Assembly (NCBI RefSeq): GCF_035285525.1
Contig: NZ_JAYKGW010000162.1
Location: 1 to 32,000 of the forward strand
Direction: 5' to 3'
DNA length: 32,000 nucleotides
DNA from: Okeania sp.
GTDB lineage: Bacteria; Cyanobacteriota; Cyanobacteriia; Cyanobacteriales; Microcoleaceae
Positions 11,666-26,353 of the stretch are shown in pieces. A program made the position numbers and the translations under genes. Below the pieces are notes generated by a model. That model was not told the origin of the DNA, searched no databases, and worked only from the letters and a program-made list of their open reading frames with translations. Position 1 is the stretch's first letter. Every line of letters begins with the position of its first letter.

Positions 11666-12862
11666 TTGGTTACAACTACAGAAAAAATTCAAACTCCAAC
11701 AAATTCTATATCTCCTATTCAAGACAGAGTAGCAGTTTTATTAATGGGATATGGAGAAGTAGAAAGTTATGAAGATTTTGCTAATTATAATGAACAAGCA
11801 TTAAACTTACTTACGGCTAAATTTGCTCCAGTTCCTACTTGGATATATCCTCCTTTAGCAAAATTATTAGCTATTTTTGATTTGCATGAATGGAGTCATC
11901 AACATGGTAACTTCATCTCTCCTCATAATGCTATTTTTGAAAGTCAAAGAGCAGGAATTGAAAAAAATCTCCAAGTAAAATGGGGCGATCGCGTCAAAGT
12001 ATTTAAAGCTTTTAACTTTTGCGCTCCCCACTTACCAGAACAAGTATTAACACAGATTAAATCTGAAGGATTTGATAAAATATTAATTTATCCTTTGTTA
12101 GTAGTTGACTCTATTTTCACCAGTGGAATAGCTGTTGAACAAGTTAATAAAGCATTAGTAAAATTAGCAGATCAAACCGAACATTGGGTTAAAGGTCAAC
12201 GTTATATTCCTTCTTTTTATAACGAACCTGATTATATTAATTTAACTGCAAAAATGGTAGAAGAACAAATTGCTAATGACTTAGCAGTTGCTCATTTACC
12301 ATCTCAAATTGGTATTGTTTTAACTAATCATGGTTGCCCCCATAAAGCCAAAGGTTTTACTTCTGGAATTGATGAAAGTCAGACACTTTATGAGTTAGTA
12401 AGAGAACGTTTAATTAATCGTTTTCCTCTAATTTCTGTAGGTTGGTTAAACCATGATACTCCAATGATTGAATGGACTCAACCAGATGCTAAAACTGCTG
12501 CGAAAAACTTGATAGAATTAGGTGCAACAGCTATTATTTTTATGCCTATTGGTTTTGCTACAGAAAACCATGAAACATTATTAGATGTAGAGCATATTAT
12601 TGAAGCTTTGCGTCAGAAACATCCGGAAGTAACTTATCGACAAATGCCTTGTGTAAATGACCGCTCAGAATTTGTGCAAATGGCTGCTGAATGGGCGAAT
12701 CCTTATATTGAGGAACTCTTAAGTGAAAATGCTTTGGCTATTAATCCTTCTTTGGCAGTAGCACAAGCAAAATCAAATCATGTTCATAGTCACGATCATG
12801 GTCATAGTCATTCTCATGGTCATCATCACCATCACGACGACCACGACCATCATCATCATTAG
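11666..12862 (+). CDS. ferrochelatase-family (class II chelatase) protein with a C-terminal His-rich tail
   Basis: 398-aa ORF with a TTG start preceded by AAGGAG (11654-11659). It has N-terminal VAVLLMGYGEVES.., NHGCPH and TENHETLLDVE (ferrochelatase-like D/N-H-x-ET). The tail is HVHSHDHGHSHSHGHHHHHDDHDHHHH. No CAB domain is present. Confidence 0.6.
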   Translation: MVTTTEKIQTPTNSISPIQDRVAVLLMGYGEVESYEDFANYNEQALNLLTAKFAPVPTWIYPPLAKLLAIFDLHEWSHQHGNFISPHNAIFESQRAGIEKNLQVKWGDRVKVFKAFNFCAPHLPEQVLTQIKSEGFDKILIYPLLVVDSIFTSGIAVEQVNKALVKLADQTEHWVKGQRYIPSFYNEPDYINLTAKMVEEQIANDLAVAHLPSQIGIVLTNHGCPHKAKGFTSGIDESQTLYELVRERLINRFPLISVGWLNHDTPMIEWTQPDAKTAAKNLIELGATAIIFMPIGFATENHETLLDVEHIIEALRQKHPEVTYRQMPCVNDRSEFVQMAAEWANPYIEELLSENALAINPSLAVAQAKSNHVHSHDHGHSHSHGHHHHHDDHDHHHH

Positions 12863-13112
12863 GTATTTTTTACTTTTCTTCAAGCCTTTTTTCAAGGTTA
12901 AATATTCTGGAAATTTGGCTGTGGAATGGGCATCTTGCCCGTTCCTGAAATATTCGGACGGACAGGATGCTCATCCGACTTATATTCACCATTTTCCTAT
13001 TTTATCAATGGGTCAAGAGTTACATAAAGGTACTATAATATAGAGTCTTGGTGCGTTGTGCGTTGTGGAATAACACACCTACTAAACTGACACACCTTAA
13101 ATAGTGCAATAT

Positions 13113-13511
13113 GTAGGGGCGGGTTTGAGCAGAAATTTTCATGCTTACTCTAAGGTCTACATAAACCCGCCCCGCTAGAGGGTGCGTGATATCATCAGGG
13201 GGCGGGTTTAGCCAACTGATCCGTGAAGACTCGTTAACTGAATTAGGACTAAAGCCATAAACGCTATTAGTAGGGTGCGTCAGCGTCAGTATCACAGATA
13301 GATACACTATATATAGTGTCTTTCCGTAAGTCCTATTAATAATAAAACCCGCCCCTAGAAAACCTAATTCCCTAATACACTATTTTAACTGTGTCGGTAT
13401 ATCATGGGGGGCGGGTTTAGCCAACTGATCCGTGAAGACTCGTTAACTTAATGATGAAACCCGCCCCTAGAAAACCTGATTCTCTAATACACTATTTTAA
13501 CTGTGTCGGTA
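13113..13511. repeat. composite repeat block: MITE-A (13113-13175) + unit X (13191-13239) + Y (13345-13399) + X (13401-13448) + Y (13457-13511)
   Basis: GTAGGGGCGGGTTT...AAACCCGCCCC hairpin element. X is ATCATGGGGGGCGGGTTTAGCCAACTGATCCGTGAAGACTCGTTAAC. Y is AAACCCGCCCCTAGAAAACCT.ATTC.CTAATACACTATTTTAACTGTGTCGGTA. Confidence 0.85.
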
Positions 13512-13648
13512 CTACCAGTAGCGTTCATGGGTAAGTCCTAATTTTAGTATTGTGGTATGTGTAAAAACTGTCGAAATATCTAGCAGATTTAAGCTTGTTC
13601 ATTCTTACTTCTGCCTTTTGCTCCTATATTATATAATATTGAAAATTT

Positions 13649-13691
13649 TGTAATCAATGATACAACACACTTCATTAAGTTTCTATAAATT
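13649..13691 (+). promoter_or_regulatory. candidate NtcA-type promoter upstream of the globin gene
   Basis: TGTA-ATCAATGA-TACA (13649-13664), then 22 nt after TAC, then TAAATT (13686-13691, fits TAN3T). About 70 nt upstream of the ATG at 13767. Confidence 0.3.
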
Positions 13692-13766
13692 GTTGGACGG
13701 AGTTAGTCAAAAATTAATTTTTTTGCTATCCTAGCACTAAATAATTTATAGAGAGATACCAAAGCA

Positions 13767-14270
13767 ATGTCATCACCAGAGCAAACCCCTAAAAATACTG
13801 ATAATACAGACCAAGATAATAAAAAAACCGAATTACAAGTTGAACTATTGGAAAACAGTTTTGAGCAAGTTAAGCCCAGAGCTGATGAATTTACTAAAAG
13901 CTTCTACAATAACCTCTTTACCGACTACCCAGATGCCCAACCCCTGTTTACTAGCACTGATATGGCAGCCCAACATAAAAAATTATTAGGCTCTTTAATT
14001 TTGGTAGTTGAAAATCTCCGGAGACCAGATGTTTTAACCGATGCACTGGAAGGACTCGGAGCTAGACACGTCAAATATGGTGCTCTACCCGAACACTACC
14101 CGTTAGTTGGTAATTCTCTGTTAAAAACTTTCGAGCAATATTTAAAAGAAGATTGGACAGAAGAAGTGAAGCAAGCTTGGGTAGATGCTTATGGAGCAAT
14201 TACTGAGCTAATGTTAAAAGGAGCAGAAGGTGTTGATGTTAGTAAAGCAGAGCTTTCAGAGAAGAAATAA
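13767..14270 (+). CDS. single-domain 3/3 globin (flavohaemoglobin/Vitreoscilla-type globin domain)
   Basis: 167-aa ORF. SFYNNLFTDYPDAQPLF carries the B10 Tyr and CD Phe, AAQHKKLLGSL the E-helix Gln, and LGARHVKYGALPEHYPLVG the proximal His region. Confidence 0.85.
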   Translation: MSSPEQTPKNTDNTDQDNKKTELQVELLENSFEQVKPRADEFTKSFYNNLFTDYPDAQPLFTSTDMAAQHKKLLGSLILVVENLRRPDVLTDALEGLGARHVKYGALPEHYPLVGNSLLKTFEQYLKEDWTEEVKQAWVDAYGAITELMLKGAEGVDVSKAELSEKK

Positions 14271-14380
14271 TAAGCAGTCAGCACTCAGCACTCAGCAATT
14301 AGTAGAATCATTTTTTTTACTTGCTAGAGGGAAACTTCAGCTCAGAGTTACAAAAACCTGATCGCTAATTAAATAAAAAA

Positions 14381-14410
14381 ATGACTGATAACTAATAACT
14401 GATAACTGAA
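14381..14410 (+). repeat. heptameric STRR leader (CTGATAA/CTAATAA)n ending ATAACTGATAACTGAA before the ATG
   Basis: Read directly. No Shine-Dalgarno-like purine run lies between the tract and the ATG. Confidence 0.9.
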
Positions 14411-15046
14411 ATGACTGGTTTTTCTGACAACATTAAAAAAGCCCATTTATTCCAATTAAAAACATTAATAATTGGAATAATGGTACTTTTGGTACTTTGG
14501 TTTGCCGGAGCATTTATCCTCGACCAACGTCAAGCTTTTCTTCCCGGAAAAACTTCTGAAGGACATTTATTATTTGAAGTTTCCTGTAATTCCTGTCACG
14601 AAGGTTTTAAACCTGTGACAAATGAAGCTTGTATGCGCTGTCATCAACCAGAAATGGCTACAGACACTCATGGCGAGAAAAAGTTTCGCGACCCCCGTTG
14701 GGCAGAATTACTGAATAATATTGATGTATTGACCTGTACTGCTTGCCATCTAGAACATGTTCATATATTTGCCCGTGGAGTTAATCTCAAACCTGACTTG
14801 TGCATGAGCTGCCATGAGGGAGTAATTGCAGGAGATATTCCCAGTCACAAAGGTTTTGAACGTGATGGCTGTTGGACGGCAGGATGTCATAATTTCCATG
14901 ACCATCGTTCTATTTCGACGGGGTTTTTGGGGCAAAATTTGAATCAACCACGACTGTTACCGAAGCCAGAATTACCAATTTTGACTGTGACAGCTACTGT
15001 GGAAAAAGCTCCTCCACCAGATTTAAGTAAAGAGTTTTTGGAATGA
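14411..15046 (+). CDS. membrane-anchored pentahaem c-type cytochrome (cytochrome c3-like)
   Basis: 211-aa ORF with one N-terminal TM helix (LIIGIMVLLVLWFAGAFIL). Four CXXCH motifs (CNSCH, CMRCH, CTACH, CMSCH) plus one CX4CH (CWTAGCH). Confidence 0.85.
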   Translation: MTGFSDNIKKAHLFQLKTLIIGIMVLLVLWFAGAFILDQRQAFLPGKTSEGHLLFEVSCNSCHEGFKPVTNEACMRCHQPEMATDTHGEKKFRDPRWAELLNNIDVLTCTACHLEHVHIFARGVNLKPDLCMSCHEGVIAGDIPSHKGFERDGCWTAGCHNFHDHRSISTGFLGQNLNQPRLLPKPELPILTVTATVEKAPPPDLSKEFLE

Positions 15047-15864
15047 AGACAATTCAAAATACACGGCAGTCTCAGTTCAAAATACGCTTGTTTCCTCTGG
15101 TTGGTTTATTTGTTTGTTTTTGGGCGCTATTTTGTGTTACTTCTCCTGTCAGTGCTAGCTCAATTTCTCAACCACAACTTGAGGATATTAATCAACTTTG
15201 GCGGGGAAGTGCCCATGCTTTAGCTGATATAAATTGTTCTAGCTGTCACTTGGAAGAGAAAACTAAAAAATTGATAAGTCAACCAACTTATGAAAGTTGT
15301 CAAAGTTGCCATGAGTCAGAAGTAGAAACTTTTTTGTTTGGCAAACACGGTATTCGTCTGGGGGAAGGTTTGTCTCCTTTGACTCCAAAAATGGCAAGCC
15401 TACCAATGAAGGAATCAGCTTTGGGGAGGCAAATGAATTGTAATACTTGCCATGACGTTCATTCTGTTAACACTTATCAAGCTGCTGTTGATTCTTGTTT
15501 GACTTGTCACAATGATACCCATTCTCTGAGTTATCAAGACTCAAAGCATGGTCAACAATTTTTGGCAGCAGGAAGGTTGCCGAGACCTTCTGAGGAGTCG
15601 GTAACTTGTGCCAGTTGTCATTTACCTCGCCAACATCAAGAGATAGGTAAAAAAGTATTTGTTAATCATAATAATACTTACAATTTATTGCCTCGCGATC
15701 GCATGGTTGCCGATGTTTGTATGAATTGTCATGGGATGGAATATTCCTATAATAGCATCTTCGATAATGAATTAGTGGAAGGCAATTTTAATCGCCAACC
15801 TAACCAAGATTTAGAAACCTTAAAACTAATTAGGGAATTTGAGAAAAAGCGATTAGGCAATTAA
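15043..15864 (+). CDS. secreted hexahaem c-type cytochrome
   Basis: 273-aa ORF whose ATG overlaps the upstream TGA (ATGA, 4-nt overlap). Signal peptide ends ..VTSPVSA-SS. Six CXXCH motifs (CSSCH, CQSCH, CNTCH, CLTCH, CASCH, CMNCH). Confidence 0.85.
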   Translation: MKTIQNTRQSQFKIRLFPLVGLFVCFWALFCVTSPVSASSISQPQLEDINQLWRGSAHALADINCSSCHLEEKTKKLISQPTYESCQSCHESEVETFLFGKHGIRLGEGLSPLTPKMASLPMKESALGRQMNCNTCHDVHSVNTYQAAVDSCLTCHNDTHSLSYQDSKHGQQFLAAGRLPRPSEESVTCASCHLPRQHQEIGKKVFVNHNNTYNLLPRDRMVADVCMNCHGMEYSYNSIFDNELVEGNFNRQPNQDLETLKLIREFEKKRLGN

Positions 15865-16374
15865 TAATTAATAATTAATAATTAATCCCTAGAGGTTTTA
15901 AGTTTTTTGACCAATAGACATCTCGAAAAATAAAAGTTAAAATCAATTACTGGGGAGAAATCATTAATTCTTTCCTCCGTAAGGACGTTGCATACAACGT
16001 TCTTACTCTCTCTTAGATAATTCAGGAGTTACGCAACTGCAACGTATTTTCGTTTGATACGACCGTCGGGAAGCAATCTCAAACCCTTATTTTTCCTACC
16101 TCATAGCTTTAGTCCTATAATTGATAATTATTGCTCTGCTAATTCAACCTCAAAGCATCTACAGATAAAAGTTTGAGCAATTAATAGTCATTTTTAAGGG
16201 GTGCATCTCAGACATATTAAATTATCAACCTCTCCAAGATTTAGAAATACTGCACTTTCTGTTGCTAGTTAGATACAAAGCTAACAAGCAAGATGCTTGT
16301 GTTAGAAAAATTCGGTTGTGGTGTACAAGTAGTGATTTTTACAATTAGACTTCTAACAATGAAAAAGGTTGATT

Positions 16375-16418
16375 TGTAAATACTGCTACATCTACAGGAC
16401 TACCAAAAGTTTTATCAT
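16375..16418 (+). promoter_or_regulatory. candidate NtcA-type promoter upstream of the Tll0287-like gene
   Basis: TGTA-AATACTGC-TACA (16375-16390), then 23 nt after TAC, then TATCAT (16413-16418, fits TAN3T). About 100 nt upstream of the ATG at 16516. Confidence 0.3.
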
Positions 16419-16515
16419 TTCAACTTGTACATCATTAGTCTGAAATAGGCTCTATTTTTCATTGTTCATTATTAATTAATTGTGTAAATTATAAATAAAT
16501 TAGGAGAATGTAACT

Positions 16516-17154
16516 ATGAATTTCTTCAAGCGTTTCCAAGGACGAACTTTAGTATTATTTACTTTAGCAGTAACTATTTGTTTCACAGCAATTGCTTGCG
16601 GTGGTGGTGGTGGTTCTCAAACTCAAGCTAGCATTGGTATTCCCCCTGAATTGGTAGTTGATTATATCCATTCTGTAGCTGAAGCTGACAGAACTGCTTA
16701 TACCAAGCACGTTGTTAACCGTCTCAAAACTTTGGAAGGAAAACCTAAAGAAGCTGGAGTTGTTCCTGCGGAAGCAACGGAAGCTTGGCAACAAGCAAAT
16801 GGTGTTCCTTTACCAGCACAAATGTTCCGTTTGGGAGCAGAGTTAGCTTCAGAAAAAGGAACCTTTACTTACGGGTTGATTTCTCCTTGGAATATTAATG
16901 ATAGTCAAGCTCCTAAAGGTGAATTTGAAAGTGCAGGAATGCAGCAAGTTGTAGATACTGGTGAACCTTATAAAGCAGAGCGAGAAATTGCCGGTCAAAA
17001 ATATTATTCGGCTATTTATCCTGATAAAGCTATTGCTGAAGCTTGTGTTACTTGCCATAATGAACACCCTATTCATAAAGAACGTTATCCTGACAAAGTG
17101 TTTAAGTTAAACGATGTTATGGGTGGTGTGGTAATTAATTTACCTTTGACTTAA
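16516..17154 (+). CDS. Tll0287-like (DUF3365) c-type haem protein, probable lipoprotein
   Basis: 212-aa ORF with SD AGGAG 9 nt upstream. Signal peptide has a lipobox-like TAIA-C followed by a Gly-rich linker. The C-terminal ACVTCHNEHP is the signature single haem-c site of this family. Confidence 0.75.
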   Translation: MNFFKRFQGRTLVLFTLAVTICFTAIACGGGGGSQTQASIGIPPELVVDYIHSVAEADRTAYTKHVVNRLKTLEGKPKEAGVVPAEATEAWQQANGVPLPAQMFRLGAELASEKGTFTYGLISPWNINDSQAPKGEFESAGMQQVVDTGEPYKAEREIAGQKYYSAIYPDKAIAEACVTCHNEHPIHKERYPDKVFKLNDVMGGVVINLPLT

Positions 17155-17461
17155 GAAGCATTTAGCTGTCGGTTTCCAAGTCTCGAAGTCTCCAAGGATT
17201 AAAATCCTCGGCTAATAGCTGAAGTCATCTAAAGATGACTGAATTTTTACAGGACTTACGCAAAAGCAGTACATAAGGAGTATTGGTGCGTTACGCTACG
17301 CTTTTCATGTCGCGGAGCGAAACGCACCCTACTGGACTAACACACCTAAAACTGTGCAGAGCGATTTTTTCTCCCTTACCACCTTGTATTCCTGGTCTTC
17401 CTTGTCTAAACACAGCCAAAAAGTAATGCACCATTATAAGGTGTGTCAATCTACTACTAGA

Positions 17462-17650: not shown

Positions 17651-17740
17651 CCCATGCACCATTTTAGCTGTAGAAATTTATTTCTTGGTCGATGACAAAT
17701 CTCGCTTTCCTTGTTCCTTCTTCCTTCTTCCTTCCAACAA

Positions 17741-18352
17741 ATGAAACCAAAATTTAGTACATTAATTGTGTTAACAATTATCACAATTGGACTATTACTG
17801 CCCTTTGTTTTTAGTCCGGTTTATATACCGATGATGAGAGAAACACATTTCGATATTTTACAGATTTTACAAGGGGAAATTTATAAACAAATAACTGGAT
17901 ATTTATCCCTAATATTTGTCATATTAGAAATGGTATTAACTGCTAGAAAAAGAGGTAGGACTTGGAAATTTAAAATGAAAATTCCCGGTTCAATTCAATT
18001 CTGGCGTATCCTACATATTTTTCTGGGAGTAGGGCTTTTAGGCACAACTGTAATTCATACAATTGGAGCGCAAGGATTAAATTTTAATGCAGTTTTTCTC
18101 TGGGTATTTTTTGGTGTTACTTTATCTGCACTTGTGGGGGTAGTTGCTGAAACTGGTTTTTTAGAATCTCCTATAAAGTTTTTCCGTTTTGCTTGGCAAA
18201 GTGCTAATTCTACAAGTGAAATTCCTGGAATTTCTAAAGGTAAATTAATTATAAATATGCGCTTAATTTGGCTAAATACTCATATTTTTTTAGTTAGTGT
18301 ATTTTGCGTGATGTTGATTTTTCATATTTTTATCGCTTACTTTTATCAGTAA
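17741..18352 (+). CDS. His-rich polytopic membrane protein (possible b-type cytochrome / DUF4405-like)
   Basis: The ORF track starts at TTG 17711 inside a CT repeat, so ATG 17741 (MKPKFSTLIVL..) is preferred. It has 4-5 hydrophobic helices. His residues sit in or near helices (RILHIFLGV..TTVIHTIG, NTHIFLVSVFCVMLIFHIF). Confidence 0.5.
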   Translation: MKPKFSTLIVLTIITIGLLLPFVFSPVYIPMMRETHFDILQILQGEIYKQITGYLSLIFVILEMVLTARKRGRTWKFKMKIPGSIQFWRILHIFLGVGLLGTTVIHTIGAQGLNFNAVFLWVFFGVTLSALVGVVAETGFLESPIKFFRFAWQSANSTSEIPGISKGKLIINMRLIWLNTHIFLVSVFCVMLIFHIFIAYFYQ

Positions 18353-18595: not shown

Positions 18596-18949
18596 ATGGG
18601 TAGTCATCGAGAACAATATATATGGAAACGTGGAGTTAAAGTTGCTATTAATTGCTACAAAATAACTCAAACTTTTCCTCGTTCTGAACTTTACGGTTTA
18701 ACCAGTCAAATTCGGCGTAGTTGTGTTTCAGTTCCATCAAATATTGCTGAAGGATATGGCAGAACAAGTAAAGCTGAATATATACGTTTTCTCAGAATTG
18801 CTCTTGGTTCTCTCAGAGAATTAGATACCCAATTAATTATTGCTAAAGCAGTAAAATTAGCCAAACCAGAACAGTTTATTTCTATCATAAAAGAAGTTGA
18901 TGAACTACAACGTCTTATCATAGCTACTATTAACAAACTAGAGAAATAA
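18596..18949 (+). CDS. four-helix-bundle protein (23S rRNA intervening-sequence protein family)
   Basis: 117-aa ORF with the ..LTSQIRRSCVSVPSNIAEGYGR.. and ..FLRIALGSLRELDTQL.. signatures. Confidence 0.85.
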   Translation: MGSHREQYIWKRGVKVAINCYKITQTFPRSELYGLTSQIRRSCVSVPSNIAEGYGRTSKAEYIRFLRIALGSLRELDTQLIIAKAVKLAKPEQFISIIKEVDELQRLIIATINKLEK

Positions 18950-19048: not shown

Positions 19049-19170
19049 ACTTTCTTCTGTCTATCTTCCACCTTATTAACTTCTTCCTTCTTCCTTCCAC
19101 CTTATTAACTTCCACCTTATTAACTTCTTCCCTCTTCCTTCTTCCTTCTTCCTTCTTCCCTCTTCCTTCC
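19049..19170 (+). repeat. polypyrimidine tract / (CTTCCTT)n STRR with three CCACCTTATTAACTT units
   Basis: The stretch 19124-19170 is 47 nt of pure C/T. It ends 9 nt before the ATG at 19180. Confidence 0.9.
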
Positions 19171-19179
19171 TAAAAAAAC

Positions 19180-19659
19180 ATGAACAATATTCGATTGTAT
19201 TTGGGTATATTAATAATACCGTTATTCCTATTAGTAACTATATTCATAACTCATAGGGATGTTTCGCCAAATACTGGTATTCCTCTGACTGGATTAGCTA
19301 CAATGAGGTCTATGGCAAAACAATCTATTCCCTATGAAATTGCTATGAATAATCATAAACCTAGTTTAATTGAATTTTATGCTGATTGGTGTACTATTTG
19401 TCAATCTCTTGCTCCTAGTTTAAAAAATTTGCATCAACAATACGGTGAAAATATTAATTTTGTAATGCTGAATATTGACAATCCAATCTGGAGTAAAGTA
19501 ATTAAAACTTATGGAGCTAATAGCGTTCCTTATTTAGTATTTTTAACACCTGAAAAAGAAGTCAAAGAAGTATTAGTAGGGAAACCTCCAGAAAGAATTA
19601 TTGAACAAATTATTATGTCTGGAAAAGTAAGCTATCAGCTATCAGCTATCAGCTATTAG
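19180..19659 (+). CDS. membrane-anchored thioredoxin-like protein (TxlA / HCF164-type thiol:disulfide oxidoreductase)
   Basis: 159-aa ORF with an N-terminal TM helix and the thioredoxin motif EFYADWCTICQSLAP (WCxxC). The last 9 codons are encoded by a (CAGCTAT)n repeat. Confidence 0.75.
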   Translation: MNNIRLYLGILIIPLFLLVTIFITHRDVSPNTGIPLTGLATMRSMAKQSIPYEIAMNNHKPSLIEFYADWCTICQSLAPSLKNLHQQYGENINFVMLNIDNPIWSKVIKTYGANSVPYLVFLTPEKEVKEVLVGKPPERIIEQIIMSGKVSYQLSAISY

Positions 19660-19873
19660 CTTTGAGTTATTGAGTTAATTATAAAACCAAAAAAGCAATT
19701 AGTCTTTAACAGTAAGCATTTAGCAGTCAGCAGTCAGCTATCAGCTTTGAGTTATTGACTTAATTATAAAAGCAAAAAAACAATTAGTCTCTAAAAGAAA
19801 TACTGAATGCTAATAGCTGAATGTTTATCTTAAAAGTGTGGGTATAATGAATATTTTTTGTTTAGTAAATAAA

Positions 19874-20437
19874 ATGCAAAAAATAAAAACGCCGAGACAA
19901 CGTTTGTGGACGGTTGAAGAATATTACAGAATAGCTGAAACAGGTATTTTAGACCCAAGCGAACGAGTAGAATTAATAGAAGGAAAAATTATGAGAATGG
20001 CAGCAAAAAGTATGGCTCATGTAATTGCTGGTAGGCGATCGCGTGATTTATTAGAAGCACGTTTGGGGGAACGAGTTTTAGTTTGGACTCAAGACCCAAT
20101 TTGCTTAGATGACTATTCGGAACCAGAGCCAGATATTGCTTTAATAATACCACCTTTGGAACGGTATCGGTATTCCCATCCAACTACTTCTGATATTTAT
20201 TTAATCATAGAAATAGCAGATACAACTATTAACAATGATTGCCGAGACAAAAGTAAAATTTATGCTCGTTCTGGTGTAGCAGATTATTGGGTTTTAGATG
20301 TTGTTGTGCGTCAATTACATGTTTTTCGAGAGCCTACAAAAGATAGTTATAAAAAGGAATCTATTTTCTCTGAAAATGAAATGGTTTCTTTATTAGCATT
20401 TCCTGATGTAAATTTGGTAGTGGAAGAAATGTTATAG
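19874..20437 (+). CDS. Uma2-family (DUF820) endonuclease-like protein
   Basis: WTVEEYYRIAETGIL..RVELIEGKI..M, EPDIALI, LIIEIADTT...D...K..IYARSGVADYWVLD. The start is uncertain: the track gives GTG 19838, and ATGs at 19847 and 19874 are alternatives. Confidence 0.8.
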   Translation: MQKIKTPRQRLWTVEEYYRIAETGILDPSERVELIEGKIMRMAAKSMAHVIAGRRSRDLLEARLGERVLVWTQDPICLDDYSEPEPDIALIIPPLERYRYSHPTTSDIYLIIEIADTTINNDCRDKSKIYARSGVADYWVLDVVVRQLHVFREPTKDSYKKESIFSENEMVSLLAFPDVNLVVEEML

Positions 20438-20815: not shown

Positions 20816-22240
20816 ATGAACATAACTAATTTTATGAAATTTATCGGCTCTATTAAAATGGCTATTCCTCTATTATCTGCCATTTCTATTATCTTAATTG
20901 GAGCAACATTTTATGAATCTCAAGTTGGTTCAAATATCGTGCAAAACGAAGTTTATAAAAGTCTTTGGTTTGGCATATTAATGTTTTTATTAGCCGTAAA
21001 TTTAGGGGTATCTGCTATGTCTCGTTACCCTTGGCGCGGGGCAAGAAAAATTGGCTTTGCCCTGACTCATTTTGGCTTAATTATTATTATTGCTGGTTCT
21101 GCTGCGGTGATTCATTTAGGCGTTGAAGGAATGTTGTTAGTTAGAACCGATGCTCCAGGAAGTAATTTGATTAGAGTTGAAGGAGATTTATTAGAAGTAA
21201 TACCTCCAAATCAAGAGTTTGAACAAACAGATATTTTCATTAATTCTAATAGTTCTATATATCCTAATTCTGTGGCAGGAATTTCGGTTTTAGGATACAG
21301 TGAAAATGCGATTAAAACTGTTAGCTTTACTGAAGGTACAACGGCTAATAATCCAGCAGTGCTTCTCAGTTTAAATAGTAATCGGATGGGGCAAAAATTA
21401 GAACGTTGGTTAGCGATCGCTCCGACAGGTTATAATCAAATTTCACTAGGTCCAGCGCAGTTAGAAATTGTCTCTGTTGGCAATGAATCTGATTTAGATT
21501 CTCTGCTATCTTTTGCAGGGGAAACTATTAGCGATCGCCAAGAAAATATAAAGTTTGTAGCTAATAATGAGTCAACAAATTTAGATTACTTTAAAGTTAT
21601 TGTTACAGATTCAGGAAAACTTTATTTTGCTGCTAATTCTTCTCAAGGTTTTAAGTCGGGAAGTTGGGAACTAGGCGAATCTATTACTCCTGGTTGGGCA
21701 GATTTTCAGATCACCTTAGAAAAGTTTATTCCCCACGGCAAAATTCAACAAGAAGTTACGCCAATATCTAATCTTATGGGAACAGGAAATCCTGCTTTAT
21801 TAGTAGAAACTCCTGGTGGAAAAAAATCATGGTTATCTTGGGGAGAACCGACAGTTATTGAAGATAAAATGGGGGAATGGTTAGCAGCTTTTAGTCCGAA
21901 ATTTTTGGAGTTACCTTTTGCTATTAAATTAGAAGATTTTATTGTAGAACGTAATGAAGGTTCCGATAGTGTGGCGATGTGGACTAGCAAAATTAGACTA
22001 GAGGATTTCCATGAAGGATTGGTAAGCGATCGCGATGTTTGGATGAATCATCCTACTTGGTATAAAGGTTGGAAAATTGCTCAAGCTTCTTGGAACCCTG
22101 GAGATTTAAACCAATCTACTTTACAAGTTAAGCGAGAACCTGCTTGGGTAACGGCTTTAACTTGGACGGGTTCTGGTTTATTAGTATTAGGAATAGGTAC
22201 TATGTTTTATGGTCCGATAATTGCTAATAAAATAAGGTGA
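20816..22240 (+). CDS. resB: ResB/Ccs1-family cytochrome c biogenesis protein (System II)
   Basis: 474-aa ORF. It has an N-terminal TM pair (MAIPLLSAISIILIGATFYES.., YPW..RKIGFALTHFGLIIIIAG), a large soluble domain, and C-terminal VWMNHPTWYKGWKIAQASW plus a final TM helix. Confidence 0.8.
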   Translation: MNITNFMKFIGSIKMAIPLLSAISIILIGATFYESQVGSNIVQNEVYKSLWFGILMFLLAVNLGVSAMSRYPWRGARKIGFALTHFGLIIIIAGSAAVIHLGVEGMLLVRTDAPGSNLIRVEGDLLEVIPPNQEFEQTDIFINSNSSIYPNSVAGISVLGYSENAIKTVSFTEGTTANNPAVLLSLNSNRMGQKLERWLAIAPTGYNQISLGPAQLEIVSVGNESDLDSLLSFAGETISDRQENIKFVANNESTNLDYFKVIVTDSGKLYFAANSSQGFKSGSWELGESITPGWADFQITLEKFIPHGKIQQEVTPISNLMGTGNPALLVETPGGKKSWLSWGEPTVIEDKMGEWLAAFSPKFLELPFAIKLEDFIVERNEGSDSVAMWTSKIRLEDFHEGLVSDRDVWMNHPTWYKGWKIAQASWNPGDLNQSTLQVKREPAWVTALTWTGSGLLVLGIGTMFYGPIIANKIR

Positions 22241-22310
22241 CACAAGCATCTTGCTTGTTGGGTAACACAAGCATCTTGCTTGTTCTGTAACACAAGCATC
22301 TTGCTTGTTC
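22237..22310. repeat. 3 tandem copies of a ~25-nt hairpin unit GTAACACAAGCATCTTGCTTGTT
   Basis: Read directly. ACAAGCA/TGCTTGT form the stem. The first copy overlaps the resB stop codon. Confidence 0.9.
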
Positions 22311-22322
22311 ACCAATACATAT

Positions 22323-22466
22323 AAAATACAGCCTAGAAGGCTGTGTTACATTAGAAAAATACAGCCTAGAAGGCCGTGTTACATTAGAAAAATACAGCCT
22401 AGAAGGCTGTGTTACATGAGGGACAGGAAAAGACAGCCTAGAAGGCTGTGTTACATTAGAAAAAAG
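22323..22466. repeat. 4 copies of a 32-nt hairpin unit AAAATACAGCCTAGAAGGCTGTGTTACATTAG
   Basis: Read directly. ACAGCC/GGCTGT form the stem. The fourth copy follows a ~10-nt irregular spacer. The array ends 2 nt before the ATG at 22469. Confidence 0.9.
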
Positions 22467-22468
22467 CA

Positions 22469-23065
22469 ATGTCTTACAGTAAATTTACTTTAGAAGAAGT
22501 TTTAACTAAATTCAATTTAACTTTAGTTGAAAACGTAGGTAAATTTAACAATTTACCAGAAGTAACTCCTAGCAAATTATTAGCAGAAACTTTAGAAGAT
22601 AATATACCATTAGCAGTAGCAGTTGCTACAGAAAAAGCTCGTTCCGAATTAATAATATCGCCAATTTTAGTGGCAGTTAGAAAATATTTAGATAAACAAA
22701 TTAGTTTATTTTCTGGAATAGAATTTAATGTTAATCTTGAGTTAGAATTAAGGGGTTATTGCGATTTTATTATTAGTCTTTCTAGTCTACAAAGTATAAT
22801 TCAAGCACCAGTAATTGTTTTAGTAGAAGCGAAAAATGATAATATAAAATCAGGTTTCGGTCAATGTTTGGCAGAAATGGTTGCTGCTCAAATTTTTAAC
22901 CAAGATAAAGGTAATCAAATTTCTAAAATCTATGGAGCTATTACTACTGGAACTACTTGGCAATTTTTAGAACTAGAAGGTAAAAATGCAGTATTAGATT
23001 TAGAGGAATATTCTGTTAAAAATTTACCAAAACTTTTAGGAATTTTAATTGATTTTTTATCGTAG
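22469..23065 (+). CDS. PD-(D/E)XK nuclease-fold-like conserved cyanobacterial protein
   Basis: 198-aa ORF. GYCDFII ... VIVLVEAKND ... GQCLAEMVAAQ fits a D...E-x-K...Q catalytic pattern. The function is inferred from the motif only. Confidence 0.5.
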   Translation: MSYSKFTLEEVLTKFNLTLVENVGKFNNLPEVTPSKLLAETLEDNIPLAVAVATEKARSELIISPILVAVRKYLDKQISLFSGIEFNVNLELELRGYCDFIISLSSLQSIIQAPVIVLVEAKNDNIKSGFGQCLAEMVAAQIFNQDKGNQISKIYGAITTGTTWQFLELEGKNAVLDLEEYSVKNLPKLLGILIDFLS

Positions 23066-23186
23066 GGGTTTGGTATCCCAACCTACTCTATAATTTTACC
23101 TTTTTCAATACCTACTTTTTCTTACTTCTAATGTCAGGGATATTATGTCAAGAATTTACCAAAACTTTTAGGAATTTTAATTGATT

Positions 23187-23294
23187 TTTTATCGTAGGGG
23201 TTTGGTCTCCAAACTGAAGAGAATAGCAGATGTTGTCAAATTTTATCGTAGGGGTTTGGTCTCCAAACCGAAGAGAATATCAGATGTTGTCAAA
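23187..23294. repeat. 54-bp tandem duplication (2 copies, 2 mismatches); the first copy lies inside a duplicate of the last 45 nt of the preceding ORF
   Basis: 23021-23074 is identical by eye to 23153-23206. Units TTTTATCGTAGGGGTTTGGTCTCCAAAC.GAAGAGAATA.CAGATGTTGTCAAA are at 23187-23240 and 23241-23294. Confidence 0.85.
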
Positions 23295-23348
23295 TTTTGT
23301 TTTTTTATATAATATTTATCAAAAACTTTTTTATAAGGAGAAACTTCA

Positions 23349-23609
23349 ATGATTAATCTATCTTTAACATCAGAATTAGAAAGCTTTATTAATTCGGCGG
23401 TGAAACGTGGCCGATATTCTTCTGCTGAAGAAATGGTTAGCACACCGTTGCAACTGCTTCAAGAAAAAGAGTTAGAACGAACTATGCGACTTGAAGAGTT
23501 GAGAAAAGAAATAGCGGTGGGTATTGCAGATAGTGATAGGGGTGATGTTTTTGATGGAGAAGAAGTAATAAAAGAATTGTGCGAAGAAATTAAGCAAGGG
23601 TGTATCTAA
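23349..23609 (+). CDS. parD: ParD-family (CC2985-type) type II antitoxin, apparently without a partner toxin
   Basis: 86-aa ORF. MINLSLTSELESFINSAVKRGRYSSAEEMV..LL...LRKEIAVGIADSDRGDV matches the ParD/antidote pattern. Confidence 0.7.
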   Translation: MINLSLTSELESFINSAVKRGRYSSAEEMVSTPLQLLQEKELERTMRLEELRKEIAVGIADSDRGDVFDGEEVIKELCEEIKQGCI

Positions 23610-23842
23610 AGATTTTGAAACGTTCTTTTAACCATCAAATATTAATTGATATTGTTAATGTAGGAGTTATTTAATCTATGAGGTACAGTTTTATATCCCC
23701 CCTACCCCCCCTTTGCAAGGGGGGAAAACTTCAAAGTCCCCCTTTCAAAGGGGGATTTAGGGGGATTAACTAATTATAAATACACTTCATAACTGTGAGA
23801 ACCGCTATATATATTTAACTAATTTTACAGAGGTACTTAATA

Positions 23843-25657
23843 ATGAAAATAATTAATTTTATCATCGGACTTTTTCTAGGAATCCTAATAATTTCAATTC
23901 CTTTTAATCAATTTCAATCTTCTACTCTTGAACCTTTACAAACTTTAGCAGTTCAATTCGATGGTAGAAAAAAACCACTAGACACAGTAGCTAGAGAAAC
24001 TGTTGCTCAAATTCACGGTAAACTTAATTATCAAACTACTAATAAAGAAGATTTAGATTATCTCCAAATTTATCTTTCTCTCTGGTTTAATAATCGTGAT
24101 TGGAACGAAGAACCTTTTATTCTATTTAGTTATCGTCCTCTGAAAGAAAAAGTCGGACTTAACCCCGAACAAAAATACTTCTCTTTTGTGGAATTAATGG
24201 AATCAAAATTAGGTTCTTTTGTTCTTGCAACTAGAGAAAAACAAAATAATGAACAAGACTTAAATAGAGACGAACGAGAAGCATTAGCTCTAGAAGAAAG
24301 ATTAGCTTTGATGATAGATACAGTCGGACAAAATACTCTACCTTTAATTCCTCATCCCACAGATATTAAAGGAACTTGGGTAAGTATTAATCGAGGTTCT
24401 GAATATTATCAACCTAATCAAATTGAACCATTATTAACAACTTACACCAATCTCAAACAAACCTATAAAATTCATCCTGAACAATTATCAATTTTGGGAG
24501 AAATTTCCCAAAAACTACAAACTCAACTCCGTAATTTAAGTAACAATATTTATCCCACATCTGCAACCTTAAAACAAGAAGTTAATTTTTATAAATTACA
24601 TCCATTTAGAAAAGCATGGATATTGTACACATTCGCCTTTTCCTTGATGTTAATAATTCTCCTATTTCCAAGTTTTACAGAAGTTACTCAGAAACCCGGT
24701 TTATCAATCAAATCTCCTGATTTAAAAAATAATCACGACAATAAACCCGGTTTCTTAATTGGTTTACGTTTTAACCTTTATTGGCTGATAATAGGAACCT
24801 TTATTTCCGGTTTATTAATTCAAACTTATGGCTTTTGGGAAAGAATGCAAATTGCCGGCAGACCTCCAGTTACCAATATGTATGAATCAGTAATTTGGGT
24901 AGGATTTGGCATCGCAGCGATCGCTCTTTTATTTGAACTAATTTATCGAGCCAAATATTATCTCCTAGCTGCTGCTCCATTATCAATTTTTTGCCTTCTT
25001 TTAGCAGATAATTTACCAGCAGTTCTCGACCCCAGTATTAAACCATTAGTTCCAGTTTTACGAGACAATTTCTGGTTAAGTATTCACGTTCCTACTATTA
25101 CTTTAAGTTATGCCAGTTTTGCTCTGGCATTTGGATTAGGGCATATACTTTTAGGCAATTATCTATTTACTCCCCAATCAAAACCAAGAATTAAAAGTTT
25201 GGCAAAATGGAATTATGGAGTCTTACAAACAGGAGTATTATTATTAGCAACTGGCATAATTTTAGGTGGTATTTGGGCACACTTTTCCTGGGGTCGTTTC
25301 TGGGGTTGGGACCCGAAAGAAACCTGGGCATTAATTGCTTTAATGTGTTATATTATTCCTCTGCATGGAAGATTAATTGGTTGGCTCAAAGATTTTGGTT
25401 TAACTGTTACCAGTGTCTTGAGTTTTAATGCAGTTTTAATGGCTTGGTATGGGGTAAACTTTGTTCTCGGAACAGGATTACATAGTTACGGTTTTAGTAC
25501 CGGAGGTTCAGAACTTATTGTTGGCAGTTTTGTCGCTTTTGATTTACTATTATTGTTAATAGTTTTCCTTCGCCATCGAAGTTCGTTGAGTGCTGAACAG
25601 ACTTTACCTCCAGAAGAAAAAACCACTACTTTTGTAGAAACATCAAACCAAATTTAA
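23843..25657 (+). CDS. ccsA: long-form CcsA/ResC cytochrome c biogenesis protein (System II haem-handling subunit)
   Basis: 604-aa ORF with the Trp-rich WWD motif GGIWAHFSWGRFWGWDPKETWAL and conserved His residues in flanking TM helices. About 250 aa of extra N-terminal soluble domain includes FDGRKKPLDTVARE. Confidence 0.85.
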   Translation: MKIINFIIGLFLGILIISIPFNQFQSSTLEPLQTLAVQFDGRKKPLDTVARETVAQIHGKLNYQTTNKEDLDYLQIYLSLWFNNRDWNEEPFILFSYRPLKEKVGLNPEQKYFSFVELMESKLGSFVLATREKQNNEQDLNRDEREALALEERLALMIDTVGQNTLPLIPHPTDIKGTWVSINRGSEYYQPNQIEPLLTTYTNLKQTYKIHPEQLSILGEISQKLQTQLRNLSNNIYPTSATLKQEVNFYKLHPFRKAWILYTFAFSLMLIILLFPSFTEVTQKPGLSIKSPDLKNNHDNKPGFLIGLRFNLYWLIIGTFISGLLIQTYGFWERMQIAGRPPVTNMYESVIWVGFGIAAIALLFELIYRAKYYLLAAAPLSIFCLLLADNLPAVLDPSIKPLVPVLRDNFWLSIHVPTITLSYASFALAFGLGHILLGNYLFTPQSKPRIKSLAKWNYGVLQTGVLLLATGIILGGIWAHFSWGRFWGWDPKETWALIALMCYIIPLHGRLIGWLKDFGLTVTSVLSFNAVLMAWYGVNFVLGTGLHSYGFSTGGSELIVGSFVAFDLLLLLIVFLRHRSSLSAEQTLPPEEKTTTFVETSNQI

Positions 25658-25715
25658 TACCATTTATCAAAAACTTTTCTACATTTTCTTGTTTAAGTAG
25701 AAAATAGAGGAGTAG

Positions 25716-25743
25716 GTAGGGACGTTGCATGCAACGTCCCTAC
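25716..25743. repeat. perfect 28-nt palindrome GTAGGGACGTTGCATGCAACGTCCCTAC (dispersed family)
   Basis: Degenerate copies at 11285-11313 and 15978-16006. No U-tract follows, so it is not called a terminator. Confidence 0.85.
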
Positions 25744-25811
25744 GGGGAAATAGATATCAGAGTAGAATGTGGTTCTCTAGCTCAAAATATTGATTCAGAA
25801 CTTTATGAGGT

Positions 25812-25894
25812 ACTGATAACTAATAACTAATAACTGATAACTGATAGCTGATAGCTGATAACTGATAACTAATAACTAATAACTGATAACTGAA
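25812..25894 (+). repeat. 83-nt heptameric STRR (CTGATAA / CTAATAA / CTGATAG)n running up to the ATG
   Basis: About 12 heptamers, ending ATAACTGATAACTGAA immediately before ATG 25895. Confidence 0.95.
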
Positions 25895-26353
25895 ATGGAA
25901 CGTCGTACTTTTTTAAATTGGGTAGGAGTCGGAATGTTAAGCAGTTTTATTCCTGTGGCAATAGCTGCTTGTCAATCCACTCAAACTAATAATTCTCCAG
26001 CAAATAAAACAGCAACAAAAATTGATACTTCTATTCGAGAAGATGGATTTCAAGCATTAGGAACTGTAGAACAATTAGAAACTGAAGGGGAAATTATTGA
26101 TAGAAGAAATGCCGCAAAACCAGTGATAATTTTTCGTAACCCAGATACTAATGATTTAGTAGCAATTAATCCTATGTGTACTCATCAAGGTTGTACTGTA
26201 AAATTGGATTTAGAAGGAAAACAATTAGCTTGTCCTTGTCATGGTTCTAAATTTGCCTTTGATGGTAAAGTTATGAATCCTCCTGCTACGGAAAATTTAG
26301 ATATTTTTGCTGTTAAACAAGAAGATAATTTACTGTTAGTAAAAGTGAATTAA
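25895..26353 (+). CDS. small Rieske [2Fe-2S] protein with a Tat signal and lipobox (PetC3-like)
   Basis: 152-aa ORF with the twin-arginine motif ERRTFLNWVG, lipobox AIAA-C, and cluster ligands CTHQGC and CPCHGS. Confidence 0.8.
   Translation: MERRTFLNWVGVGMLSSFIPVAIAACQSTQTNNSPANKTATKIDTSIREDGFQALGTVEQLETEGEIIDRRNAAKPVIIFRNPDTNDLVAINPMCTHQGCTVKLDLEGKQLACPCHGSKFAFDGKVMNPPATENLDIFAVKQEDNLLLVKVN

Follow-up and report, generated by a model that had tools for sequence, protein, structure and literature searches.

A conserved cyanobacterial gene cluster proposed to encode a haem relay across the plasma membrane

INTRODUCTION

To our knowledge, the electron transport of cyanobacteria is usually described without multihaem c-type cytochromes. 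Elsewhere, enzymes of the HAO/ONR/NrfA kind hold one haem per about 65 to 95 residues, and dedicated System II haem lyases are exemplified by Wolinella NrfI, for the motif CXXCK, and CcsA1, for CX15CH. Here, we describe a gene cluster on a 32,000-nucleotide stretch of DNA from Okeania sp. (Oscillatoriales; contig NZ_JAYKGW010000162.1, positions 1 to 32,000), hereafter called the window. The cluster encodes a globin, a pentahaem (c5) and a hexahaem (c6) cytochrome c, a Tll0287-like haem-c lipoprotein (Tll-like), and a polytopic membrane protein (Memb), and we propose with fair confidence that it constitutes a haem relay across the plasma membrane, probably controlled by NtcA.

Several studies bear on the parts of this cluster. 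Work on cyanobacterial exoelectrogenesis imports multihaem cytochromes from Geobacter (2026 review, PMC12983203). In a purified DUF4405 protein, haem b is bound by four central histidines, and a role as transmembrane electron carrier was proposed (PMC11334425). According to a 2026 preprint (PMC12889525), stand-alone sCache_haem proteins act as redox proteins, and those fused to signalling domains act as nitric oxide (NO) sensors. The Rieske protein PetC3 is a periplasmic lipoprotein of the plasma membrane with a midpoint potential (Em) of +135 mV, and its loss disturbs nitrogen-related metabolism (PMC10172866, PMC12341915). Lastly, GTAN8TAC is the consensus NtcA site, which in activated promoters is centred ∼41.5 nucleotides (nt) upstream of the transcription start (PMC3898017). 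An initial annotation of the window, made from its sequence alone, had supposed that multihaem cytochromes were undescribed in cyanobacteria. The literature covered by our search agrees, as we found in it no account of such a module, of multihaem cytochromes native to cyanobacteria, or of cyanobacterial globins with a tail anchor.

RESULTS

A five-gene core is collinear across cyanobacteria

We fetched 84 loci from many cyanobacterial orders and compared them by tblastn with each window protein. Five genes recurred on one strand in the order globin-c5-c6-Tll-Memb (Table 1), being present in 81, 84, 84, 83, and 78 of the 84 loci, respectively, and the missing ones mostly coincided with contig ends. 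The globin was the first gene of the collinear core in 81 loci, the Tll-like gene lay 3' of c6 in 83, and two of the genomes with the collinear core, those of Thalassoporum PCC 7367 and Acaryochloris marina, are complete. A thioredoxin gene followed Memb in 54 loci, and genes for ResB, CcsA, and a Rieske protein stood within 10 kb of the core in 49, 42, and 33 loci; the order ResB>CcsA>Rieske was constant, and the position and orientation of this unit varied among loci. Across cyanobacterial orders, component identities were 55 to 82%, and the divergence of Memb correlated across loci with that of the Rieske protein (rho 0.77), c5 (0.72), and CcsA (0.66). Clustering of the open reading frames (ORFs) of the 84 loci added one further conserved neighbour, a pentapeptide-repeat protein with full-length orthologues (35 to 66% identity) beside the cluster in ∼44 loci, and revealed no conserved porin, surface cytochrome, or extra cytochrome family. 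The initial annotation had staked its idea of a haem/redox island on co-localisation in related genomes, and the core is collinear in 78 to 84 of the 84 loci. Altogether, the globin-c5-c6-Tll-Memb grouping is far beyond chance and is a real conserved functional unit.

A search with c6 returned 509 homologues, the best 120 of which were at least 59% identical, with all named ones cyanobacterial. In a scan of one genome per species, a c6 relative was found in 199 genomes. The best 80 of these 199 were all cyanobacteria and included Acaryochloris marina MBIC11017, Prochloron, Moorena bouillonii, Hyella, Spirulina, Roseofilum, Geitlerinema, Coleofasciculus, Pleurocapsales, and Pseudanabaenaceae; the protein search identified Thalassoporum mexicanum PCC 7367 as a carrier. 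The named hosts are, we assume, mostly marine benthic, mat-forming, endolithic, or symbiotic cyanobacteria. The Nostocales, to which the initial annotation had looked for the lineage, do not appear: the source is Okeania, and none of the best 80 of the 199 was named as Nostocales. One locus (L049, from a Prochloron metagenome-assembled genome, ∼9700-13800) has a c5 ORF of just 93 residues and a globin gene located after Memb, which could result from decay of the cluster in a symbiont or from an assembly error.

The multihaem cytochromes resemble a wire built on an HAO-type scaffold

The c5 and c6 genes share an ATGA overlap and are thus translationally coupled, as the initial annotation had noted. 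Its count of twelve haem-c sites within 2.8 kb also proved accurate: five sites in c5, six in c6, and one in the Tll-like protein lie within 2.74 kb. Four of the c5 sites are CXXCH and one is CX4CH (CWTAGCH), and all five were kept in 78 of 79 homologues, including the last one as CW[TA][AG][GA]CH. In addition, five histidines outside the motifs were invariant in c5, even when non-cyanobacterial fusions (see below) were in the alignment. In c6, the six CXXCH motifs and H58, H102, H140, H160, H169, and H209 were invariant among cyanobacteria, and all of these remained invariant or conserved to 90% or more among 70 aligned sequences, with identities down to 29%. The haem density of both proteins was ∼35 to 40 residues per haem, mature c6 (∼235 residues) having ∼39. 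Because eleven spare conserved histidines are available for eleven haems and the haem density is high, c5 and c6 appear to form a wire rather than an enzyme, in which all eleven haems are probably bis-His ligated.

The AlphaFold2 (AF2) model of c6 was of high confidence (pLDDT 91.6, pTM 0.82), and its best Foldseek match was the HAO structure 6t5e (E = 2.4e-4, prob 1.0), followed by octahaem nitrite reductase (ONR, TvNiR) and NrfA. Consistent with this fold, a c6 profile matched the HAO-like protein 6h5l (hmmsearch, 1.6e-7). The alignment showed an extra CXXCH in 6h5l (CDMCH), which falls in an insertion between haems 2 and 3 of c6 and has no c6 counterpart. If 6h5l has the eight sites of its family, as we presume, the unmatched CDMCH is the fourth and corresponds to the catalytic haem-4 position. 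The motif CXXCK was also absent from c6. A catalytic role of c6 is unlikely because CXXCK and one HAO-like CXXCH site are both lacking, and the protein may be described as an HAO/ONR-type scaffold without its catalytic haem. Accordingly, the "multihaem wire or catalyst" of the initial annotation would keep its first half and lose the second.

Profile searches were in line with this view. The NCBIfam enzyme models all scored far below their cutoffs on the window proteins; TIGR03508, of the MtrA/DmsE family, reached 26 to 47 bits against a cutoff of 192, and the DmsE/MtrA and MtrC-domain models gave weak matches only. We found no match of c5 to Cytochrom_NNT (NapC/NirT) at E ≤ 0.01, and a c5 profile retrieved no useful solved relative from the PDB.

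Memb is probably a di-haem b cytochrome

The initial annotation had described the next core protein as a His-rich polytopic membrane protein. Polytopic it is, and its histidines are better described as two spaced pairs: just four histidines were invariant, H92/H106 and H181/H195, each pair with the spacing H-x13-H. A search with Memb returned 470 homologues, all annotated as hypothetical. The pairs lie within predicted long helices (85-108 and 166-201), and all four histidines were retained in the non-cyanobacterial homologues. Sub-threshold matches to DUF4405 were found in 24 of 26 Memb members (best 3e-4) and to Ni_hydr_CYTB, the prokaryotic cytochrome b561 family, in 18 of 26 (best 2e-4). 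The Memb sequence had no match in the PDB. Together, these features suggest that Memb is probably a di-haem b cytochrome of a DUF4405- or b561-like kind, with the four histidines as candidate haem ligands.

The module recurs in other phyla, where the b-type domain is fused to reductases

In a profile search of the full library, all cyanobacterial c6 proteins fell into a single 50%-identity cluster, and the second tier of relatives consisted of c5::c6 fusions of 400 to 480 residues, the named ones coming from metagenome-assembled genomes of Magnetococcales and Thermoanaerobaculia. We retrieved eight non-cyanobacterial loci, with GC contents of 37 to 71% (six measured), and in all eight a Tll0287-like gene lay directly 3' of c5::c6. 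Two loci (L088 and L089) have a separate Memb gene after the Tll-like gene (hidden Markov model [HMM] E values of 1e-31 and 4e-5), and a third (L093) has an ORF of 199 residues without a Pfam match in the same position. In four others (L085, L086, L090, and L091), a cytoplasmic reductase encoded just upstream ends in a Memb domain that has both H-x13-H pairs (HMM E values of 3e-10 to 3e-3; hhalign, 1.6e-4). The reductases of L085, L086, and L090 contain BFD-type [2Fe-2S] and FAD/NAD or Pyr_redox_2 domains, that of L086 with an added cNMP-binding domain; the reductase of L091 is cut by the contig end and has a BFD-like Cys motif and no Pfam record. The remaining locus, L092, encodes a Pyr_redox_2/BFD reductase upstream of c5::c6.

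The fusion of the b-type domain to flavin/[2Fe-2S] reductases supports a transmembrane electron relay and is our strongest functional clue, suggesting that this domain joins a cytoplasmic electron source to a periplasmic haem chain. As judged from the loci compared, the ancestral core would comprise c5/c6, the Tll-like protein, and Memb.

The non-cyanobacterial loci also offered some isolated observations. The module adjoins genes for a TonB-dependent receptor and a periplasmic binding protein in L092 (1598-5175) and an H-NOX (HNOB+V4R) gene in L093 (10529-11068), single instances that hint at metal uptake or at NO/O2 sensing. In L089 (8001-10496), a protein of 831 residues combines an MFS-type transporter domain with c5::c6.

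The globin is of the flavohaemoglobin type and mostly tailed

The closest PDB match of the window globin was Methylacidiphilum HGbI (3s1i, 4e-24), followed by VHb, Cgb, and Hmp globin domains. His F8 (H101), Tyr B10 (Y47), and Gln E7 (Q69) were at least 95% conserved. At 167 residues, the protein consists of the globin domain only and scores 77.5 bits with NF009805, against a cutoff of 432. It also matched the globin domain of the nitric oxide synthase entry 9q05 (6.9e-6), which we take to be a cyanobacterial enzyme whose globin domain makes nitrate.

We found no signal peptide in the cluster globins. A hydrophobic C-terminal tail was present in 52 of the 71 complete ones (73%), of which 16 have one globin domain, 31 have two, and 5 have three; the Symploca protein extends to 784 residues with about four domains. 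We infer that the globin sits at the cytoplasmic face, where the loci of other phyla have a flavin reductase. The "self-contained periplasmic" module of the initial annotation must accordingly be abandoned, given a globin that lacks a signal peptide and is mostly tailed and a probable di-haem b protein that spans the membrane.

The haem-c lipoprotein, maturation proteins, and Rieske protein

The Tll-like protein has a lipobox cysteine (Cys28) and a haem-binding CVTCH at residues 177-181, of which C177, C180, and H181 were invariant across phyla. The cross-phylum alignment revealed the extended motif CxxCHNxH and a Met103 with hardly any variation. Many polar residues were invariant as well; this set, rich in Arg, Tyr, Gln, Asn, and His, could line a small-molecule pocket. 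Cysteines are confined to the signal peptide, the lipobox, and CXXCH, so the mature protein has no extra one. The role of gas/redox sensors that the initial annotation had suggested is putative for the globin and the Tll-like protein, and the latter lacks the Cys ligand of Tll0287. The sequence alone had no match in the PDB, and a match of the cross-phylum profile to 5B82 (E = 0.73) was confined to the C-terminal half.

The claim of the initial annotation that the cluster brings its own cytochrome c maturation genes was borne out, since the thioredoxin, ResB, and CcsA genes travel with it. The thioredoxin, with invariant C71 and C74, is a probable apocytochrome thiol reductase. The Pfam scores of ResB and CcsA both exceeded the respective cutoffs. 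In ResB, which diverges from its family profile and has no NCBIfam match, His85, His100, and His412 were conserved. The CcsA protein scored 152.9 bits with TIGR03144, below the housekeeping equivalog level (cutoff 187.6); its WWD motif and histidines were conserved among 39 to 42 orthologues, as was an N-terminal extension of ∼320 residues without a Pfam match. The three proteins may load the twelve c haems, including that of the CX4CH site. Because of their divergence, the N-terminal extension, and their co-location with the core, ResB and CcsA are candidates for dedicated copies, serving either the CX4CH site or maturation at the plasma membrane.

The Rieske protein had its best PDB match in PetC3 (5cxm; phmmer, 3e-17, ∼95 residues) and scored 60 bits with the b6f PetC equivalog, whose cutoff is 250. 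Both Rieske cluster boxes (CTHQGC and CPCHGS) were conserved, as were its RRxF motif and lipobox. The likeness to PetC3 suggests a periplasmic rather than a lumenal location of the module.

An NtcA-type promoter precedes the globin gene

In the window, an NtcA-type site and a -10 box precede the globin gene (Table 1) and predict a transcription start near 13698. Of 70 loci, 44 had the motif GTAN8TAC in the 350 bp that precede the globin ATG. By comparison, among 350-bp windows drawn from these loci, it occurred in 11.8% of the GC-matched ones (P = 7e-24) and in 5.9% overall, and shuffled sequences contained it in 7.3 ± 2.8 loci. In many loci, a TAN3T box follows the site at ∼22 nt. Upstream of the internal genes, the motif was seen in just 0 to 7% of cases. 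Modest enrichment was measured upstream of the pentapeptide-repeat gene (11 of 46) and upstream of ResB genes without a shared divergent promoter (8 of 28, P = 0.005). The full ResB enrichment was not retained at face value, as 12 of its 20 matches fell in a divergent intergenic region shared with the globin gene. The presence of the motif at the globin gene and its near absence at internal genes fit one core operon that begins with the globin, with accessory units that are partly coregulated.

Two further GTAN8TAC sites of the window, 5' of the Tll-like gene (16376-16389) and of the pentapeptide-repeat gene (30455-30468), have a -10-like box at the proper spacing; the one at the Tll-like gene is not conserved (5 of 83 loci). 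A generic sigma-70 scan yielded 57 sites, with 57.4 expected. The comparative data suggest that the cluster is probably under NtcA (nitrogen-status) control, and such a promoter fits nitrogen step-down, one of the conditions that the initial annotation had suggested.

Extent of the conserved unit and neighbouring genes

The ten ORFs of the initial annotation were all recovered on the plus strand at the positions it had given, and our Pfam and NCBIfam searches agreed with its family assignments. Its limits of the island (11666 to 26353) needed revision at both ends. The conserved unit starts at ∼13650, which leaves out the ferrochelatase-like gene, and it gains a pentapeptide-repeat member beyond the former end. 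As a cluster member, the ferrochelatase-like gene was ruled out by its linkage in 1 of 84 loci (tblastn); its product scored 91 bits against the hemH equivalog cutoff of 124.6 and also matched CbiX. The parts list also left out four unrelated ORFs that are interspersed between the cluster genes; one of them, of 198 residues, recurs close to the cluster in 5 loci. A minus-strand gene for a protein of 1,058 residues splits the Rieske gene from the pentapeptide-repeat gene, and these two are adjacent in the closest relative (L005). The multihaem ORFs, whose status as genes the initial annotation had left to be confirmed, are intact and strongly conserved rather than pseudogenes. The GC content of the stretch showed no anomaly relative to its flanks, and the composition bore no sign of recent or foreign acquisition.

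Tandem repeat arrays occupy the spacers at 19065-19169, 22236-22464, 23187-23298, and 25812-25893; the unit ACTGATA is repeated 11.7 times directly 5' of the Rieske start codon, and a 33-bp unit with hairpins is repeated four times just 3' of ResB. A dihaem cytochrome c gene lies ∼13 kb from the cluster, outside the conserved neighbourhood. An Rfam scan gave no match within the cluster and, elsewhere in the window, identified a group I catalytic intron. The 3' flank of the intron, to position 6400, holds the T-arm-like sequence GGTGGTTCAAATCC, so the intron probably interrupts a tRNA gene; ARAGORN found no tRNA in the window.

TABLE 1 Features of the Okeania sp. window, with positions counted from its first nucleotide
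Feature	Position	Strand	Remarks
NtcA-type site GTAATCAATGATAC	13650-13663	+	104-117 nt 5' of globin ATG
-10 box TAAATT	13686-13691	+	22-nt spacer after NtcA-type site
Single-domain 3/3 globin, flavohaemoglobin (F) family	13767-14270	+	Pfam Globin, 69.5 bits
c5, pentahaem cytochrome c with N-terminal membrane anchor	14411-15046	+	Pfam Cytochrom_c3_2, above cutoff
c6, secreted hexahaem cytochrome c	15043-15864	+	Six CXXCH
Tll0287-like (sCache_haem, PF11845) haem-c lipoprotein	16516-17154	+	Pfam, 62.2 bits (cutoff 24.1)
Memb, polytopic membrane protein of 203 residues, probable di-haem b cytochrome	17741-18352	+	ATG at 17741
Membrane-anchored thioredoxin, WCxxC	19180-19659	+	Pfam Thioredoxin, 62 bits
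ResB/CcsB-type System II protein, divergent from family profile	20816-22240	+	Pfam ResB, 53 bits
CcsA-type haem-handling protein, 604 residues	23843-25657	+	Pfam Cytochrom_C_asm, 106.7 bits
PetC3-type Rieske [2Fe-2S] lipoprotein	25895-26353	+	Tat signal (RRTF), lipobox Cys26
Pentapeptide-repeat protein, 306 residues	30702-31622	+	Pfam Pentapeptide, 150 bits
23S-rRNA-IVS protein	18596-18949	+	Interspersed, unrelated to cluster
Uma2 nuclease	19838-20437	+	Interspersed, unrelated to cluster
ORF of 198 residues, no assigned family	22469-23065	+	Interspersed
ParD antitoxin	23349-23609	+	Interspersed, unrelated to cluster
FG-GAP / 3x Calx-beta / PPC-domain protein, 1,058 residues	26631-29807	-	GC 0.42-0.45, higher
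Ferrochelatase-family paralogue	11666-12862	+	Long His/Asp-rich C-terminal tail
Dihaem cytochrome c	184-747	-	Pfam DHC, 92 bits; two CXXCH
Group I catalytic intron (RF00028)	6122-6333	+	65.5 bits

DISCUSSION

A proposed haem relay

Our proposal of a haem relay is built on features computed here, namely, the synteny, the conservation of haem ligands, the fold of c6, the cross-phylum module, and the promoter motif; it further supposes that Memb binds haem b, that the parts physically touch, that the outer side is the periplasm and not the lumen, and that NtcA is in control. At the cytoplasmic face would stand the flavohaemoglobin-type globin, in most species tailed, and within the membrane Memb, which would hold two b haems through its H-x13-H pairs. 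The outer face would carry the anchored c5, its soluble partner c6, and the haem-c sCache lipoprotein, with c5 and c6 forming an eleven-haem wire. A PetC3-type periplasmic Rieske lipoprotein and the pentapeptide-repeat protein would be frequent accessories. Because relatives combine the b-domain with flavin/[2Fe-2S] reductases of the NAD(P)H type in one protein, we lean, tentatively, towards a flow of electrons from the cytoplasm or the quinol pool to the periplasm. The chain would then end at the haem of the Tll-like protein, which would face a small molecule, and the globin would respond to O2 or NO as a partner that feeds or gates the b cytochrome.

Several observations weigh against this proposal. 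The haem ligands of c5 and c6 were assigned from counts of conserved histidines and not from coordinates. Memb has no Pfam family at the gathering threshold, and the window protein has no match at E ≤ 0.01; its AF2 model is mediocre (pLDDT 70), and the top Foldseek match of that model, FdnI, the di-haem b subunit of formate dehydrogenase-N, is not significant (E = 1.8). The clustering of ORFs in the 84 loci revealed no conserved terminal enzyme or outer-membrane component nearby, and the accessory genes (Rieske, thioredoxin, ResB/CcsA, and pentapeptide-repeat) are missing from many loci, partly owing to contig ends. GTAN8TAC is lacking in 26 of the 70 globin-upstream regions and is not enriched in the window as a whole, so the evidence for it is comparative. 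Lastly, 19 of the 71 complete globins are tail-less, that of the window among them, and an outward flow sits awkwardly with the usual role of globins, that of electron acceptors.

This last point leads to the opposite direction, a possible but rather doubtful one, in which the relay re-reduces a membrane-tethered globin that acts as an NO dioxygenase or reduces O2. Donors in the periplasm, or plastoquinol by way of the Rieske protein, would supply electrons that run through c6, c5, and the b cytochrome to the ferric globin. The globin would either scavenge O2 or convert NO and O2 to nitrate, which under NtcA control would serve as a source of nitrogen. The globin indeed has the Tyr B10/Gln E7/His F8 pocket of NO dioxygenases without an FAD/NAD module, holds the place of the flavin reductase of relatives, is tailed and tandem in most species, and matches 9q05; an NtcA-type promoter would suit nitrogen scavenging, and an H-NOX gene is adjacent in one non-cyanobacterial locus. 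However, the cytoplasm is rich in reductants and twelve periplasmic haems seem needlessly elaborate for this task, the non-cyanobacterial modules lack any globin, about a quarter of the cyanobacterial cluster globins have no tail, and no periplasmic electron donor is encoded. A nitrogen link would also suit the catalytic role considered in the initial annotation, that of a periplasmic enzyme of the NrfHA, HAO, or ONR kind, with c6 or c5/c6 turning over nitrite, NO, or hydroxylamine. The fold of c6, the coupling of an anchored multihaem gene to an HAO-fold partner as in nrfH-nrfA, the label "NrfA- nitrite reduction protein" automatically given to a fused relative in one database, and the invariant polar residues of the Tll-like protein, which could form a small-molecule site, all speak for it. 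We nevertheless hold it to be quite improbable, as CXXCK is absent, the non-motif histidines number six for the six haems of c6 and five for the five of c5, and the CXXCH that is fourth in order in 6h5l, and probably marks its catalytic haem, has no equivalent in c6. Moreover, the ∼39 residues per haem of c6 are fewer than in the HAO/ONR/NrfA enzymes, the NCBIfam enzyme models remain far below their cutoffs, and c5 is without the NapC/NirT signature.

If electrons do leave the cell, they might reach Fe(III), Mn(IV), S0, or humics, providing energy in the dark under anaerobic conditions or an overflow valve in mats. An eleven-haem bis-His chain comes near the MtrA-type conduits in haem count, with weak DmsE/MtrA and MtrC-domain matches; the named hosts are apparently mostly marine benthic, mat-forming, endolithic, or symbiotic; the NAD(P)H-type reductases of relatives would push electrons outward; and one relative adjoins a TonB-dependent receptor. 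Such extracellular transfer is still unlikely in our view: the 84 loci share neither a porin of the outer membrane nor an outer-surface cytochrome in the vicinity of the cluster, the MtrA-family model reaches 47 bits where 192 are required, NtcA control has no obvious fit to anaerobic respiration, and a small haem-c lipoprotein, not a surface cytochrome, is conserved as the terminal partner. The presence of all three types of redox subunit found in Rieske/cytochrome b complexes raises the idea of a miniature quinol oxidase of the bc/b6f kind, in which Memb, near cytochrome b6 in size and with two His pairs on two helices, would pair with a Rieske protein whose boxes (CTHxGC and CPCHGS) are of the bc type and whose divergence follows its own (rho 0.77). 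We give this little credence, since Memb has no Pfam Cytochrome_B match and the Rieske protein is lipid anchored and PetC3-like instead of helix anchored, is encoded within 10 kb in 33 of 84 loci, travels with ResB-CcsA and not with Memb, and was seen in none of the eight non-cyanobacterial loci. As for a chance juxtaposition of unrelated or decaying genes, the unusually long spacers and selfish-type ORFs between the window genes and the uninformative sigma-70 scan might suggest it, but the synteny refutes it. The core is collinear in 78 to 84 of 84 loci and the c5::c6-Tll-Memb triad recurs in other phyla, no ORF is truncated compared with its orthologues, the cofactor-binding residues are all intact, and components keep 55 to 82% identity across orders, so that we regard this explanation as having practically no weight.

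Significance of the relay

As far as we found, the parts of the proposed relay are all of known protein kinds, and what is new is their assembly, the host range, the globin partner, and the nitrogen-type promoter. A bolder view, which we consider speculative and rather unlikely to hold in full, is that the cluster represents the first native multihaem transmembrane conduit of oxygenic phototrophs, regulated by nitrogen and present in a simpler form in uncultured Proteobacteria and Acidobacteriota. It would link cytoplasmic reducing power, or a tandem haemoglobin tethered to the membrane, with the periplasm by means of a new di-haem b family, an eleven-haem HAO-derived wire without its catalytic haem, and a haem-c Cache protein for a small-molecule redox reaction, for example with NO or another N-oxide. 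On this view, benthic cyanobacteria would have an unrecognised route for trading electrons with the environment or for obtaining scarce nitrogen.

A strongly conserved twelve-haem-c module, carried by ∼200 species with cultured strains of Acaryochloris marina and Thalassoporum PCC 7367 among them, would extend cyanobacterial electron transport by a branch and would bear on how electrons are shed or gained by cyanobacteria that form mats. It would also bear on the roles of PetC3-type Rieske and stand-alone Tll0287-like haem proteins and on the redox partner of flavohaemoglobin-type globins that lack a reductase domain. In other phyla, the core fused to NAD(P)H-type reductases would constitute an uncharacterised family of transmembrane reductases.

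Comparison with known systems

The c6 protein shares its fold and the colinear order of its haem motifs with HAO, ONR, and NrfA, and the translational coupling of c5 and c6 resembles that of nrfH and nrfA. Unlike these enzymes, c6 is about half as large, has no CXXCK, and has one CXXCH fewer than the aligned HAO-like protein, whereas c5 differs from NrfH-type partners in falling outside the NapC/NirT family and in bearing a CX4CH site. With the CymA/MtrCAB system of Shewanella, the cluster has in common a long, putatively bis-His multihaem chain that starts at the inner membrane. It differs from that system in having no porin or surface cytochrome and in its entry point, which appears to be a b-type cytochrome with an anchored pentahaem protein instead of a NapC/NirT tetrahaem.

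Memb resembles DUF4405 proteins, b561/FdnI, MsrQ, and the NOX/ferric-reductase family in having four conserved histidines on two transmembrane helices. Like NOX, its relatives are fused to NAD(P)H-type flavin reductases, but the order is reversed, with the reductase N-terminal and equipped with a BFD-type [2Fe-2S] domain. The role we suggest for Memb, that of handing electrons through the membrane to a partner in the periplasm, would be shared with other di-haem b carriers; in contrast to them, its Pfam similarity is sub-threshold and the partner would be a multihaem cytochrome c and not a molybdoenzyme, O2, or a flavinylated protein. The cluster globin is akin to Hmp, VHb, Cgb, and HGbI in its fold, His F8, Tyr B10, and Gln E7. 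It is unlike Hmp in lacking the FAD/NAD module, and the cluster globins stand apart from F-family globins in being mostly tandem (1 to 4 domains) with a hydrophobic tail and in heading a multihaem operon.

The accessory proteins show the same mixture of likeness and difference. As with the dedicated haem lyases of Wolinella, ResB and CcsA are encoded beside a substrate with a non-canonical motif, here CX4CH, but they are split and not fused, and the extension of CcsA is novel. The Rieske protein is like Synechocystis PetC3 (5CXM) in its Tat signal and lipobox and in standing outside b6f, with differences in its moderate identity and its linkage to ResB-CcsA; PetC3 has an Ala where the cluster protein keeps the Ser of CPCHGS, so the potential of the latter may be higher. 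The Tll-like protein agrees with Tll0287/sCache_haem proteins in its strictly conserved CXXCH and in being stand-alone and extracytoplasmic. Unlike Tll0287, it has no axial Cys, which makes His/Cys ligation impossible, and it is a lipoprotein, is always encoded beside c5/c6, and is barely alignable to 5B82.

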